The translations under genes were made by a program, and so were the position numbers. DNA of 64,000 nucleotides from Escherichia coli (GTDB taxonomy: Bacteria; Pseudomonadota; Gammaproteobacteria; Enterobacterales; Enterobacteriaceae). The stretch is taken from NCBI RefSeq assembly GCF_036507355.1, contig NZ_AP027877.1. One strand, written 5' to 3'. A model generated the notes under the pieces. That model was given only the letters and a program-made list of their open reading frames with translations, did no database searches and was not told where the DNA came from. Numbering within the stretch: the first letter of the stretch is position 1; each line of letters begins with the position of its first letter. Of the stretch, positions 26,703 to 63,589 are shown in pieces.

Positions 26703-27114
26703 TTTCATACCTCAATGGCCCAATTTACACTGGGTCATTACTCATAACACCTGCTAATGCTTTACATCTCCTTCGCGTTTGTATATTTTCTTTATCACTT
26801 GCAGAAATGCGATGCTACGCCTTGCTCCGTAACTCACCCCATTGATTAACTTATTGAAATAGTTGATTATGATGAGCAAAAGCGTTCCGTTCCAATTAGA
26901 CATAAGATTATTGTAATTTTTTTAAATATTATTTTTCCATGAATAAAATTGGAGTAAGTGCGTGGATAGTAATAATTAAATTGAATCCTGTTTAAGCAGA
27001 AAATCGTCAGAAGGTAAACCACAAATATTTACAACCTTACGAAATATTGATCTTAATCTTCTGACTATTTTTGAAGCTGTATATGTACATAAAGGGATCG
27101 TTAATGCAGCGAAA

Positions 27115-27915
27115 GTGCTTAATCTGACCCCCTCGGCAATCAGTCAGTCTATTCAGAAACTGCGCGTTATATTCCCTGACCCATTGTTTATTCGCAAAGG
27201 CCAAGGTGTCACTCCTACCGCATTTGCGATGCATCTACATGAGTATATCAGTCAGGGCCTTGAGTCCATTCTTGGCGCGCTGGATATCGAAGGAAGCTAT
27301 GATAAGCAACGAACGATAACTATTGCGACCACCCCCTCGGTCGGAGCCCTGGTCCTTCCTGTCATTTATCGGGCGATTAAAACTCACTATCCGCAGCTTT
27401 TACTGCGCAACCCGCCCATCAGCGACGCGGAAAACCAACTCAGTCAGTTTCAAACCGATCTCATCATCGATAACATGTTTTGCACCAATCGTACGGTGCA
27501 ACATCATGTTCTGTTCACCGACAATATGGTGTTAATTTGCCGCGAGGGAAATCCACTACTCTCTTTAGAAGATGACAGAGAGACTATCGACAACGCTGCA
27601 CATGTACTCCTGTTACCGGAAGGACAAAATTTCAGCGTTCTGCGGCAGAGAATTCAAGAGATGTTTCCGGACCGGCAGATCAGCTTCACCAGCTACAACA
27701 TTTTGACAATCGCTGCACTGGTTGCCAACAGTGACATGTTAGCGATTATTCCCAGCCGTTTTTATAACCTGTTTAGCCGTTGCTGGCCGCTGGAAAAACT
27801 GCCTTTTCCGTCCTTAAATGAGGAGCAAATAGATTTCTCTATCCACTACAACAAATTCAGCCTGCGTGATCCCATCCTGCACGGAGTAATAGATGTTATC
27901 CGTAATGCATTTTGA
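27115..27915 (+). CDS. ybeF: LysR-family transcriptional regulator; N-terminus uncertain (HTH-coding sequence continues in frame upstream to an in-frame TAA at 26977..26979)
   Basis: ORF 27115..27915 (266 aa, GTG start); upstream in-frame sequence encodes the LysR HTH region ...TTLRNIDLNLLTIFEAVYVHKGIVNAAK. Confidence 0.6.
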   Translation: MLNLTPSAISQSIQKLRVIFPDPLFIRKGQGVTPTAFAMHLHEYISQGLESILGALDIEGSYDKQRTITIATTPSVGALVLPVIYRAIKTHYPQLLLRNPPISDAENQLSQFQTDLIIDNMFCTNRTVQHHVLFTDNMVLICREGNPLLSLEDDRETIDNAAHVLLLPEGQNFSVLRQRIQEMFPDRQISFTSYNILTIAALVANSDMLAIIPSRFYNLFSRCWPLEKLPFPSLNEEQIDFSIHYNKFSLRDPILHGVIDVIRNAF

Positions 27916-29189: not shown

Positions 29190-29393
29190 TCACTCTTTAT
29201 GAGAGAGCTTTTCAGCCTGAAGATCAACGTCTGCGCCTTTTTTCGCCGCAGCATCGTCATCATTCATCGCCTTCTTGAACCCTTTAATGGCCGCTCCAAG
29301 GTCTCCGCCCAGCGTACGTAACTTCTTAGTCCCAAACAGCAGAACGACCAGCGCCGCAACTACCAGCAGTTTGGTAATACTAATCTCACCCAT
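29190..29393 (-). CDS. tatE: twin-arginine translocase subunit TatE
   Basis: 67 aa; N-terminal TM helix [25 protein letters not shown] typical of TatA/E. Confidence 0.9.
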
Positions 29394-29521: not shown

Positions 29522-30316
29522 TCATAATAATTGCGGCGGCGCAAAGCGACGGTTGTTTAAGACGGGCAGTTGCGCGCGCACCTGACGCACACGTTCGGGC
29601 GTCACTTCCGCCATAATGAGTGCAGGCATTTCTGACGCTGCCGCAATGGTGACGCCAAAGGGATCTATAATCCGGCTTTGCCCGATATTTTTGTTCCCGC
29701 ACTCCCCCGCCGCCACCATATAACAGGTGGTATCCAGCGCACGAGCGGCAAGCAACGTTGACCAGTGATGCTCTTTGAGCGGCCCGCGAACCCAGGCGGC
29801 AGGAAGTGCCAGGATTTCAGCTCCCTGTAATGCCTGTGCCAGCGCCAGCTCTGGAAAGCGTAAGTCATAACAGGTCATCAGACCGACCTTCATCCCTTCC
29901 ACCTCCAGTAACGGAGCGATTTCATTACCAGCATCAACACGGCGTGATTCCTGAATGGCAAATGCATCATAGAGATGCAGTTTGGCATAACGGGCGACAA
30001 TGTTTCCTGCCTGTAGCGCCACCAGCATATTCCATGCGCGCCCCGGCGTTGAAGGAACATGAATCGTCAGAATTGTCGTCATCATGTTACGTTTACTTTC
30101 TCGCCGTAAACGTCCGAGGAATTCGCCTTCCAGCAGCTGTGCTGATTTAACCGATAGATCTGCATCATGATCATCGCGTGCCAGCAATGCTTCCGGCAGG
30201 ACAAACAGCGATACGTCGTTTTCCGCCGCCTGCGCCATCAACGAGGCACAAATCTCAGCGTTCTTTTCCCACACAGATGTAACAGCAAACTGTCCTGCAG
30301 CAACCAGCATTGCCAC
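29522..30316 (-). CDS. ybeM: C-N hydrolase (nitrilase superfamily) protein, apparently intact
   Basis: 264 aa uninterrupted ORF; catalytic Cys context [12 protein letters not shown]. Confidence 0.75.
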
Positions 30317-30402
30317 CTCCTGTCAGAGTCGTAAAATTCGCCAACGACGATTATTCGGCGTTACACTTATCACTCATACAAATCAAATAGCAGGATTTTG
30401 CA

Positions 30403-30786
30403 GTGTTACAACTTCTTTTAGCAGTTTTTATTGGCGGTGGTACGGGAAGCGTGGCGAGATGGCTGTTAAGTATGCGATTTAACCCGCTGCATCAGGCGAT
30501 TCCGTTGGGGACGCTGGCTGCAAATCTGATTGGGGCATTCATCATAGGAATGGGATTCGCCTGGTTCAGCAGGATGACAAACATTGATCCCGTGTGGAAA
30601 GTATTAATCACCACCGGATTTTGTGGCGGTCTTACAACCTTCTCAACATTTTCGGCAGAAGTGGTGTTTTTGTTACAAGAGGGCCGCTTTGGCTGGGCGT
30701 TACTGAACGTTTTCGTCAACCTTCTGGGGTCTTTTGCCATGACCGCACTGGCTTTCTGGCTGTTTTCGGCCTCAACCGCACACTAA
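30403..30786 (+). CDS. crcB: fluoride ion channel CrcB/FluC
   Basis: 127 aa, four hydrophobic helices. Confidence 0.9.
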
Positions 30787-30792
30787 AGACCA

Positions 30793-30821
30793 AAAAAAAC
30801 CCGCTGATTAAGCGGGTTTTG
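30793..30821. terminator. bidirectional rho-independent terminator between convergent crcB and cspE
   Basis: aaaaaaaacccgctgattaagcgggttttg. Confidence 0.75.
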
Positions 30822-30839
30822 AATTCTTGCTGACGTATC

Positions 30840-31049
30840 TTACAGAGCGATTACGTTTGCAGCAGAAGGGCCTTTGGCACCGTTAGTGATTTCGAACTCT
30901 ACGCGCTGACCTTCAGCAAGAGTTTTAAAACCATTAGTCTGGATTGCAGAGAAGTGTACGAACACGTCTTTGCTGCCGTCTTCCGGAGTAATGAAACCGA
31001 ATCCTTTGGACTCATTAAACCACTTAACGTTACCTTTAATCTTAGACAT
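30840..31049 (-). CDS. cspE: cold-shock-domain protein CspE
   Basis: ORF 30840..31133 trimmed to [20 protein letters not shown] (RNP1 motif); 69 aa. Confidence 0.92.
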
Positions 31050-31223
31050 CAAAATTACCTTTACATGAAAAATAGACACAAATGCTGTGTCGGTTACCAG
31101 TACACCAATTGTGGTACGCTTTGTCCAGTGCAACTTTACTAAAAAGTGATAAAAGTCGCGTTATTTTTGATGTTAATTATTTTACTCATTGATTTTAAAG
31201 AATTTACTAAAACTTCATTTGTC

Positions 31224-31714
31224 TCAAAACTGAAAGCGCATCCAGGCAAAGTACACATTACCATTGTTGTAGGTACCCGGAATATAGGTCATCTGAAAAG
31301 TCACTGGACCATAACCCACGGAGGCCAATGGCAGTAGAACCGGGAGAGGGATGTTATTCCAGTTATCACGTGCCGTTACGCCAGCGGTGAATCCCAGACC
31401 TAAATGAAAAGTTTCATCCGCCAGCGGTCGCCAGGTACTTTCCCATCCGTATCCGGCAATCGGTTCCCATTTGTTCCACGAGTCCTTAAATGCCATGGCA
31501 TACAGGCCATGCCAGTTTCCTTTTTCATCCCAACGCGACAGGCCAAAACCGCCACCCCACGGTCGCTCGTTATAGCGATCGGTTTTTTCTTTGTCGTAAG
31601 CGAAACGTGCATGCCAGGTGATGGCAGGAATATATAAATCATAATGTTCAGGCTGTTGCCAGGTTTGTGCAATATTTTCTCTAAACGTTGTCATCCACTC
31701 ATCTGCGTTAGCAA
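31224..31714 (-). pseudogene. pagP: lipid A palmitoyltransferase PagP, 5'-truncated: signal-peptide codons and promoter replaced by IS1
   Basis: Reading frame continues upstream of the ORF-track Met as ...[15 protein letters not shown] and runs straight into the IS1 terminus at 31715; first ~24 codons absent. Confidence 0.85.
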
Positions 31715-31729
31715 GGTAATGACTCCAAC

Positions 31730-32233
31730 TTATTGATAGTGTTTTATGTTCAGATAATGCCCGATGACTTTGTCATGCAGCTCCACCGATTTTGAGAACG
31801 ACAGCGACTTCCGTCCCAGTCGTGCCAGGTGCTGCCTCAGATTCAGGTTATGCCGCTCAATTCGCTGCGTATATCGCTTGCTGATTACGTGCAGCTTTCC
31901 CTTCAGGCGGGATTCATACAGCGGCCAGCCATCCGTCATCCATATCACCACGTCAAAGGGTGACAGCAGGCTCATAAGACGCCCCAGCGTCGCCATCGTG
32001 CGTTCACCGAATACGTGCGCAACAACCGTCTTCCGGAGCCTGTCATACGCGTAAAACAGCCAGCGCTGGCGCGATTTAGCCCCGACATAGCCCCACTGTT
32101 CGTCCATTTCCGCGCAGACGATGACGTCACTGCCCGGCTGTATGCGCGAGGTTACCGACTGCGGCCTGAGTTTTTTAAGTGACGTAAAATCGTGTTGAGG
32201 CCAACGCCCATAATGCGGGCTGTTGCCCGGCAT
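31730..32233 (-). CDS. insB: IS1 transposase InsB frame (InsAB' made by -1 frameshift)
   Basis: 167 aa ORF recognised as IS1 InsB. Confidence 0.9.
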
Positions 32234-32427
32234 CCAACGCCATTCATGGCCATATCAATGATTTTCTGGTGCGTACCGGGTTGAGAAGCGGTGTAAGTGA
32301 ACTGCAGTTGCCATGTTTTACGGCAGTGAGAGCAGAGATAGCGCTGATGTCCGGCGGTGCTTTTGCCGTTACGCACCACCCCGTCAGTAGCTGAACAGGA
32401 GGGACAGCTGATAGAAACAGAAGCCAC
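32152..32427 (-). CDS. insA: IS1 InsA transposition inhibitor/repressor
   Basis: 91 aa; [43 protein letters not shown] zinc-finger N-terminus. Confidence 0.92.
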
Positions 32428-32482
32428 TGGAGCACCTCAAAAACACCATCATACACTAAATCAGTAAGTTGGCAGCATCACC

Positions 32483-33848
32483 CCTTATTGGGGTTGTGGT
32501 TATTGTGGGTGTAGCTCGCTACATCATTAAAGGGTATTCCGCCACTGGCGTGTTATTTGTCGGTGGCCTGTTATTGCTGATTATCAGTGCCATTATGGGG
32601 CACAAAGTGTTACCGTCCAGCCAGGCTTCAACAGGCTACAGCGCCACGGATATTGTTGAATACGTTAAAATATTGCTAATGAGCCGCGGCGGCGACCTCG
32701 GCATGATGATTATGATGCTGTGTGGCTTTGCCGCTTACATGACCCATATCGGCGCGAATGATATGGTGGTCAAGCTGGCGTCAAAACCATTGCAGTATAT
32801 TAACTCCCCCTACCTGCTGATGATTGCCGCCTATTTTGTTGCCTGTCTGATGTCACTGGCCGTCTCTTCCGCAACCGGTCTGGGTGTTTTGCTGATGGCA
32901 ACCCTGTTTCCGGTGATGGTAAACGTTGGTATCAGTCGTGGGGCAGCAGCTGCCATTTGTGCCTCCCCGGCGGCGATTATTCTCGCACCGACTTCAGGGG
33001 ATGTGGTGCTGGCGGCGCAAGCTTCCGAAATGTCGCTGATTGACTTCGCCTTCAAAACGACGCTGCCTATCTCAATTGCTGCAATTATCGGCATGGCGAT
33101 CGCCCACTTCTTCTGGCAACGTTATCTGGATAAAAAAGAGCACATATCTCATGAAATGTTAGATGTCAGTGAAATAACCACCACTGCCCCTGCGTTTTAT
33201 GCCATTTTGCCGTTCACGCCGATCATCGGGGTGCTGATTTTTGACGGCAAATGGGGTCCGCAATTACACATCATCACTATTCTGGTGATTTGTATGCTGA
33301 TTGCCTCCATTCTGGAGTTCCTCCGCAGCTTTAATACCCAGAAAGTTTTCTCTGGTCTGGAAGTGGCTTATCGCGGGATGGCAGATGCATTTGCAAACGT
33401 GGTGATGCTGCTGGTTGCCGCTGGGGTATTCGCTCAGGGGCTTAGCACCATCGGCTTTATTCAAAGTCTGATTTCTATCGCTACCTCGTTTGGTTCGGCG
33501 AGTATCATCCTGATGCTGGTATTGGTGATTCTGACAATGCTGGCGGCAGTCACGACCGGTTCAGGCAATGCGCCGTTTTATGCGTTTGTTGAGATGATCC
33601 CGAAACTGGCGCACTCTTCCGGCATTAACCCGGCGTATTTGACTATCCCGATGCTGCAGGCGTCAAACCTGGGTCGTACCCTATCACCCGTTTCTGGCGT
33701 AGTCGTTGCGGTTGCCGGGATGGCGAAAATCTCACCATTTGAAGTCGTAAAACGCACCTCGGTGCCGGTGCTTGTTGGTTTGGTGATTGTTATCGTTGCT
33801 ACAGAGCTGATGGTGCCAGGAACGGCAGCAGCGGTCACAGGCAAGTAA
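32483..33848 (+). CDS. dcuC: anaerobic C4-dicarboxylate transporter DcuC, 5' end and promoter replaced by IS1 (possible fusion start inside IS1 end)
   Basis: ORF track 32469..33848 begins with TTG inside the IS1 terminal repeat; DcuC-like sequence from ...LIGVVVIVGVARYIIKGY onward. Confidence 0.7.
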
Positions 33849-45105: not shown

Positions 45106-46344
45106 TCATATTGTTCCCCCCGGCATCGCATTCACCAGACCTGAAACCGCCTTCTGCGCCGCCTCTGCGCTTTGTGCACCGGGTACCAGAATCACCTTAC
45201 GGCACTCCTCTTCACGTTTTTCGAAAATCTCATATCCCCGGGCGGCCTCTTCAAACGGCATATAGTGGGTAACAATTTCTTCTGGTTTCAGTAATCCTTT
45301 CTCAATTAACGGTAATAATTCTCCCAGCCATGCGTGAACGTGGGTCTGTCCCATTTTAAACGTCAACCCTTTATCAAAGGCGTCGCCAAACAGGAAACCG
45401 TGAATAAATCCAGCGTAGACGCCCGGTACGCTAACAATGCCGCCACGCCTGACCGCCGCAATACACTGACGCAACGCTTTACCGCTGCTGCCCTCCAGTT
45501 TCAGGTTAGTCAGCACCGTTTCCGTGGTGCTGCCTTTCGCTTCAAAACCGACGGCGTCTATTACTGCATCCACGCCCCGGTGACCTGCCGTTTGTTCAAT
45601 AATTGACTGTGCCGGATCGCTATCTTCATCGAAATTAATCGGGATCGCGCCGTAGCGGTCAGCGGCGAAACGCAAGCGGTAGGGATGATGATCAACAACA
45701 AAAATCTGTTCCGCACCGAGCAACCGTGCACAGGCGATTGTCAACAATCCCACAGGACCAGCACCATAGACAGCAACGCTTGAACTTTGTTGGATCTGCG
45801 CATTTTTTGCTGCCTGCCATGCCGTTGGCAGAATATCAGAAAGGAAAAGGGCTTTATCATCTGAAAGCAAAGGCGGTACTTTAAACGGCCCCACATTCCC
45901 TTTAGGGACGCGGACATATTCCGCCTGCCCACCAGGAACGCCACCATACAGGTGACTATAACCAAACAATGCCGCGGGAGCTGGTATCTGTTTTTTATTG
46001 AGCGCAGCGCCTTTACCCGCATTGGTATTTTCGCAGGCGGCATATTACTGCATTCGACAGAAAAAACAGTCGCCACAAGCAATGACAAACGGAATTACCA
46101 CCCGGTCGCCTTTTTGCAAATTTTTTACGTCCTTTCCGGTTTCAACTACTTCCCCCATAAATTCATGACCAAAAATATCGCCATGTTTAACCTGGGGTAT
46201 TTTGCCTCGATAAAGATGGAGGTCAGAGCCACAGATCGCCGTTGCCGTAATACGCAGAATAATATCATCTGCCTGTTCAACGCCCGGATCGGGAACATTT
46301 TCTACCTGAACGTTATATGGGCCGTGATAAGTCAATGCTTTCAT
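45106..46344 (-). pseudogene. ybdR: Zn-dependent alcohol dehydrogenase-like oxidoreductase interrupted by an in-frame TAA at codon 100
   Basis: N-terminal ORF 46045..46344 (99 aa, ends ...[10 protein letters not shown]) and C-terminal ORF 45106..45969 are in the same frame; region between them translates without further stops ([32 protein letters not shown]); total 1239 bp. Confidence 0.8.
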
Positions 46345-48788: not shown

Positions 48789-48807
48789 AATTACGCGATT
48801 GCGGAAC

Positions 48808-56134: not shown

Positions 56135-56286
56135 CAATACCTCCGGTAAACAGGTTGCTGAGAGAGTGCATTAATAGCTATCAACGCGCTCGGTCAGTCC
56201 CCTCGCCCCATCGAGGAGAGGGTTAGGGTGAGGGGGAACCCTCGGCACTATGCCAACATTCGCCAACATCCCCCCTCACTCTGACT

Positions 56287-63449: not shown

Positions 63450-63589
63450 ATTTTCGGTCGCTAACCTAAAAGCAAACGCGCACTATGTCAACTCTTGAGG
63501 TAACGCAATCTGCAACTCGGGGTTGCATCTGGTTGTGGTTACAATGAAAATGAGAAGCATTAACTTCATTAATAACAGGAAGCTGATTT

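Follow-up and report, generated by a model that had tools for sequence, protein, structure and literature searches.

The ybeM gene in the 64-kb stretch of Escherichia coli DNA analysed here (the window) is, with high confidence, an intact wild-type allele which, to judge from its sequence, would encode a Nit1-type member of the nitrilase superfamily acting as a deaminated glutathione (dGSH) amidase. It is a gene already known and annotated, with a function assigned to it, and it occurs here in the intact condition that is usual for it. The allele that stands out is that of the laboratory strain K-12, where one missing base has put the catalytic residues into different reading frames.

The gene, its start and its immediate surroundings

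A preliminary description of this DNA had pointed to an uninterrupted 264-codon frame between tatE and crcB. The frame is present in the ORF list and, though that description left the strand unstated, lies on the minus strand. The features needed for what follows are:

29522..30316, minus strand: ybeM as mechanical ORF, 264 codons from GTG, 0 internal stops (ORF list)
29522..30310, minus strand: ybeM CDS in its probable true extent, ATG to TGA, 262 aa
30311..30321, minus strand: ybeM ribosome-binding region, Shine-Dalgarno AGGAGG (30321-30316) and 5-nt spacer TGGCA (30315-30311), as read from the sequence
29190..29393, minus strand: tatE, downstream neighbour of ybeM on the same strand, 100% identical to the K-12 gene
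30403..30786, plus strand: crcB, fluoride channel gene, divergent from ybeM, with a 92-bp intergenic region to the ybeM ATG

The gene order tatE - ybeM - crcB is common to the window, EC1515, MG1655, BL21(DE3), Nissle and IMT5155. Upstream of ybeM the coding strand reads ACAGGAGGTGGCAATG, in which the GTG that opens the 264-codon ORF (30316-30314) overlaps a perfect Shine-Dalgarno sequence, AGGAGG (30321-30316), and the ATG at 30310 follows that sequence after 5 nt. In EC1515, whose ybeM allele is identical at the DNA level, the RefSeq CDS is 789 nt long (262 aa) and starts with ATG. Given the placement of the GTG inside the Shine-Dalgarno sequence, together with this 789-nt RefSeq CDS, the gene is best placed at 29522..30310, with translation probably beginning at the ATG at 30310, to give 262 aa, rather than at the GTG of the longer ORF.

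In the 92-bp spacer between ybeM and crcB no Rfam family, the fluoride riboswitch included, is detected at E<=1. The sole promoter-like hexamer pair found in the scans would serve crcB; it lies on the plus strand at 30310-30337, overlapping the start of ybeM, and is a consensus match only. A consensus scan between ybeM and tatE returned no convincing terminator, and the two may or may not be co-transcribed. On the far side of crcB, cspE and its leader (30792-31234, minus strand) match the Rfam cspA thermoregulator family, RF01766, at 127.6 bits (gathering score 78).

Published regulatory data are also at hand. The ybeM gene of Salmonella, followed with a translational reporter, was expressed very weakly and not in a FliA-dependent way, and the authors concluded that FliA promoters probably do not transcribe it (bioRxiv 10.1101/2020.09.09.289983). 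NsrR ChIP peaks occur at ybeM in both CFT073 and K-12, the motif not being given there, and in CFT073 under NO stress the gene is down-regulated (PMC5320621). These regulatory data leave the reading of ybeM unchanged.

Family membership and the catalytic triad

Membership in the nitrilase superfamily (the C-N hydrolases), as the preliminary description had it, is borne out by Pfam, NCBIfam and solved-structure matches alike. Against Pfam PF00795 (CN_hydrolase) the product scores 138.8 bits (cut-off 23.2; E=2.6e-40), with residues 5-247 corresponding to profile positions 2-255 of 256, and against the NCBIfam model for deaminated glutathione amidase, NF033621, it scores 449.6 bits where the curated cut-off is 355 (E=3e-135; profile 2-260 of 260), a margin of about 95 bits. 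With E values of 2.6e-40 in Pfam and 3e-135 in NCBIfam, the frame is far beyond what chance would leave open. Among solved structures, 14 superfamily members match at E<=1e-10, headed by the Nit domain of C. elegans NitFhit (1ems; E=1.2e-29) and by yeast 'NIT2' (4h5u; E=8.3e-27), and an alpha-beta-beta-alpha sandwich is very likely the fold. The exact 262-aa protein is already public on 893 contigs, under the name 'deaminated glutathione amidase [Escherichia coli]'.

The catalytic residues are located as follows (residue numbers, here and below, are those of the 262-aa protein):

30191..30193, minus strand: Glu40 codon GAA, in an LPE motif aligned with the LPE of 1ems and 4h5u
29981..29983, minus strand: Lys110 codon AAA, in a YAKLHL motif aligned with YNKLHL of 1ems
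29849..29884, minus strand: 12-residue Cys motif, residues 143-154, aligned with GLSICYDVRFPE of 1ems
29870-29872, minus strand: codon TGT of the nucleophile, Cys147, within the 12-residue motif

The catalytic-Cys motif mentioned in the preliminary description is thus found at residues 143-154, with the Cys codon TGT at 29870-29872. In the alignments to 1ems and 4h5u, the LPE that contains Glu40, the KLHL that begins with Lys110 and the CYD-RFPE context of Cys147 (TCYD) are all in register, and the Glu-Lys-Cys triad is complete.

The nearest known counterpart is the protein of EC1515 (WP_001307668.1, NF033621), from which there is no difference: the DNA is identical over 1021 bp, the CDS is identical and of the same length, and the locus is the same. 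With eukaryotic Nit1 (1ems; yeast 4h5u, 4hg3 and 4hg5; mammalian Nit1) YbeM shares the branch by best match, the triad, the CYD-RFPE motif and the assigned reaction, the similarity being moderate rather than close (E about 1e-29 over about 250 residues). PDB entries 4h5u, 4hg3 and 4hg5, deposited as 'NIT2', represent the yeast Nit1 orthologue; it has an insertion before the C-terminal strand that is absent from YbeM (two HMMER stretches), and, unlike NitFhit, YbeM is without a Fhit fusion. The Nit2 or omega-amidase type (E. coli YafV, NF007757; mouse Nit2, 2w1v) has the same fold family and triad and likewise serves metabolite salvage, its substrate being the amide of a 2-oxo acid, though it belongs to a branch paralogous to that of YbeM.

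This relatedness of Nit1 and Nit2 gives some footing to the view that the dGSH name is an over-annotation, and that YbeM acts on another amide or on a nitrile, either as an omega-amidase on 2-oxoglutaramate in the manner of Nit2 and YafV or as a true nitrilase. Mouse Nit2 (2w1v) is indeed among the structures matched by YbeM, and weaker matches exist to the models for an archaeal nitrilase (62.5 bits), N-carbamoylputrescine amidase (60 bits) and the YafV-type amidohydrolase PRK10438 (NF007757, an omega-amidase; 57.4 bits). However, every superfamily model other than that for dGSH amidase falls far short of its cut-off, the respective values for these three being 500, 410 and 249 bits, whereas the dGSH amidase profile is covered from one end to the other and its threshold well exceeded, and the top solved relatives, 1ems and 4h5u, are of the Nit1 branch. 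A different substrate is very improbable, and assignment of YbeM to the Nit1 type is preferred.

The K-12 lesion and the frequency of its allele

The preliminary description had put forward that some laboratory reference genomes carry ybeM as a pseudogene, and had named equally intact reference alleles as the observation that would tell against its reading. This is true of MG1655, in which ybeM (b4581) is annotated as a pseudogene, and of the K-12 derivative DH1, which, together with the clinical isolate EC-129, has the gene annotated as 'frameshifted'. Alignment to reference alleles also locates the lesion, and equal intactness fails for K-12. In an alignment of the window, MG1655, EC-129 and EC1515, the K-12 lesion proves to be the loss of one G from codon 67, at position 206 of the ORF and 200 of the CDS:

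30111..30111, minus strand: the G deleted in the K-12 allele (C on the plus strand), codon 67, present in the window

Translation of the K-12 allele yields 66 native residues and 9 aberrant ones (LYGEKVNVT) before a stop. What remains is readable in another frame only, from Met76 (187 codons) and without Glu40, so that in the K-12 allele Glu40 no longer shares a reading frame with the other two catalytic residues, Lys110 and Cys147. Locus and neighbours are the same in MG1655 and the window; 9 substitutions are distributed across the CDS, and the MG1655 protein, once the deletion is repaired, differs from that of the window by 3 residues (V33A, V37A, A168V). Independently, the MG1655 gene has been called a pseudogene and used as a neutral insertion site (PMC4788846).

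How widespread the deletion is was counted by megablast with an exact 28-base word, using a 54-mer centred on the K-12 junction, which can match deletion genomes only, and a 55-mer centred on the G, which can match only genomes that keep it. The two sets are disjoint and sum exactly to the 5424 complete E. coli genomes holding the locus, with the deletion in 860 (about 16%) and the G kept in 4564 (84%). Carriers of the deletion extend beyond laboratory strains: when 60 of their records were sampled at even intervals, NCTC86 was among them, and so were isolates of human, poultry, swine, river-water and seawater origin. Among strains with the gene annotated as intact are BL21(DE3), O157:H7 strains and the B2 strains Nissle and APEC IMT5155; strain W matches the full length of the 1021-bp query, and K-12 derivatives are 1 bp shorter. 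Most genomes thus have ybeM intact, which parsimony makes the ancestral condition as well, the deletion being derived because the deep-branching B2 alleles are intact.

With the best-known reference, K-12 MG1655, carrying a ybeM pseudogene, an intact frame might be taken as unusual, marking a special lineage that has retained or regained a gene generally lost from E. coli. To this next to no credence can be given, since 84% of the genomes holding the locus are undeleted, BL21(DE3), O157:H7, Nissle and IMT5155 are intact, W is of full length, and the deep-branching B2 alleles are intact as well. Retention of ybeM as a marker of a special lineage is refuted by the allele counts, 860 against 4564. 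The suggestion in the preliminary description of a 'lineage that keeps' the gene consequently holds in so far as the G and the full frame are kept in the window, but the lineage is not distinguished by this, as 4564 of the 5424 genomes keep the G too. The favoured reading is again that of a gene in its common, ancestral condition.

Two further alleles came to light. In the O166:H15 strain JNE21-003 (NZ_AP041809.1, locus L005, 1281-4198) ybeM is split by the IS21-like element ISEc62 (istA/istB), an independent route of loss. In EcN_Sk (NZ_CP172017.1, locus L008, 1-1654), which carries a Nissle-type label, crcB-ybeM-tatE is 100% identical to MG1655, frameshift included; another Nissle assembly (CP148105) is 2% different at crcB-ybeM-tatE, and intact. 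This suggests a K-12-derived patch in EcN_Sk, from recombination, strain engineering or assembly artefact.

Constraint on ybeM within an eroding neighbourhood, and its proposed role

Identity to MG1655 is about 98-99% along the window, which is collinear with positions 689535 down to 624100 of that genome; 58 of the 63 genes checked keep their K-12 length, the exceptions being pagP, dcuC, ybeF, ybdR and fepB, of which the last runs past the window end. At pagP and dcuC, a complete 768-bp IS1 (31715-32482; flanks 31224-31714 and 32483-33848), with its terminal inverted repeats intact and a target-site duplication absent, replaces 678 bp of K-12 sequence (MG1655 655949-656626), which comprises all of the pagP-dcuC intergenic region along with the opening 70 nt of pagP and 20 nt of dcuC. 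Both genes are 5'-truncated, their starts having been lost through this replacement, in what looks like an IS1-mediated adjacent deletion. Among 11 complete E. coli genomes with IS1 in or beside pagP, none has a perfect match to the pagP/IS1 junction in a single piece. A 40-mer across this junction also has no match among species-representative genomes, and the truncated PagP product has no database record. The two other lesions are nonsense codons. In ybeF (26962-27915, plus strand), the gene for a LysR-type regulator, codon 6 (26977-26979) is changed from CAA, as found in K-12 and EC1515, to TAA, and the longest remaining frame, from a GTG at 27115, covers 266 of 317 aa. In ybdR (45106-46344, minus strand), for a putative Zn-dependent alcohol dehydrogenase, the same CAA to TAA change affects codon 100 of 412 (46045-46047), and the gene is an apparent nonsense pseudogene in the window lineage.

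Other differences between the window and MG1655 are structural. Four are seen, at 483-490, 48793-48805, 56169-56173 and 63560-63562: the K-12 IS5D between gltI and lnt is absent from the window, which is also shorter by about 127 bp in the ahpC-ahpF spacer, about 33 bp near cstA-ybdD and about 183 bp in the fepB-entC spacer. They are probably repeat-element polymorphisms. BL21(DE3) (NC_012971.2, locus L011, 20933-29266) has lesions of its own in the region, with an internal stop in ybeQ, gltL split by IS150, and a frameshifted djlC in the place of K-12 djlB, ybeT, ybeU and djlC. All the genes damaged there (ybeQ, djlB, ybeT, ybeU, djlC and gltL) are intact in the window.

With four damaged genes in the same 64 kb (pagP and dcuC by the IS1-linked deletion, ybeF and ybdR by nonsense codons), it may be asked whether the ybeM frame of the window, too, is silent or decaying, a chance and short-lived survivor in a segment that otherwise accumulates pseudogenes. 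That the gene is dispensable in 860 genomes, and that its Salmonella reporter is very weak, would fit. Such a state nonetheless has only a slender chance of being the right one, for the protein is identical on 893 contigs and in EC1515, meaning that there is no lineage-specific missense change, and neither the catalytic triad nor the Shine-Dalgarno sequence is damaged. Moreover, intact alleles bear a mark of long-term constraint, with pN/pS about 0.1: comparison of the window allele with two from phylogroup B2 gives 0.09-0.10, from the small counts of 11-14.5 synonymous and 3-4.5 non-synonymous differences, which is consistent with purifying selection on intact copies of ybeM. A functional, constrained gene accordingly stays the preferred interpretation of the open frame.

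A further possibility, unlikely though less so than the alternatives above, is that the polymorphism is non-neutral. The deletion would then have spread to about 16% of complete genomes, many natural isolates as well as K-12 derivatives, through loss of dGSH amidase being advantageous or cost-free in some gut-commensal lineages of phylogroup A, and the window lineage would be keeping ybeM under selection while eroding its neighbours pagP, dcuC, ybeF and ybdR. If so, ybeM might be kept, e.g., for sulfur or glutathione economy inside the host.

As to what an intact YbeM would do, the starting point is a side reaction. Transaminases occasionally deaminate glutathione, giving its 2-oxo analogue, dGSH, and YbeM would hydrolyse the amide bond of that compound to release 2-oxoglutarate and cysteinylglycine. 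Following the superfamily mechanism, attack by Cys147 on the amide carbonyl would produce a thioester acyl-enzyme, with Glu40 presumably acting as general base and Lys110 stabilising, it may be supposed, the tetrahedral intermediate and its oxyanion. A thioester-forming Cys, a general-base Glu and a stabilising Lys are established nitrilase-superfamily chemistry, which we extend to YbeM by inference. The role would then most likely be one of metabolite repair or salvage, this physiological assignment being itself deduced. For dGSH as the probable substrate, the grounds are homology and the curated model. The 2017 study by Peracchi and colleagues reportedly showed E. coli homologues to be good and efficient dGSH amidases. 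For the eukaryotic counterpart, Nit1 splits dGSH into 2-oxoglutarate and Cys-Gly (PMC7041631; PMC10452834; both citing Peracchi et al. 2017), and mice, yeast and Arabidopsis that have lost it show no overt phenotype (PMC7041631). As a counterpoint to the proposed role, ybeM is dispensable in E. coli, given that about 16% of complete genomes are without a functional copy, and it is disrupted in other ways too (ISEc62).

That K-12 is unrepresentative at ybeM is a known caveat, here quantified as 860 deleted against 4564 undeleted genomes. The noteworthy allele is the K-12 one, likewise already known, and beyond correct annotation the significance of the window allele is small. In practice, the repair of glutathione damage in E. 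coli is best studied in a strain whose ybeM is intact (BL21(DE3), W or a carrier of the window allele, for example), K-12 serving as a natural null.
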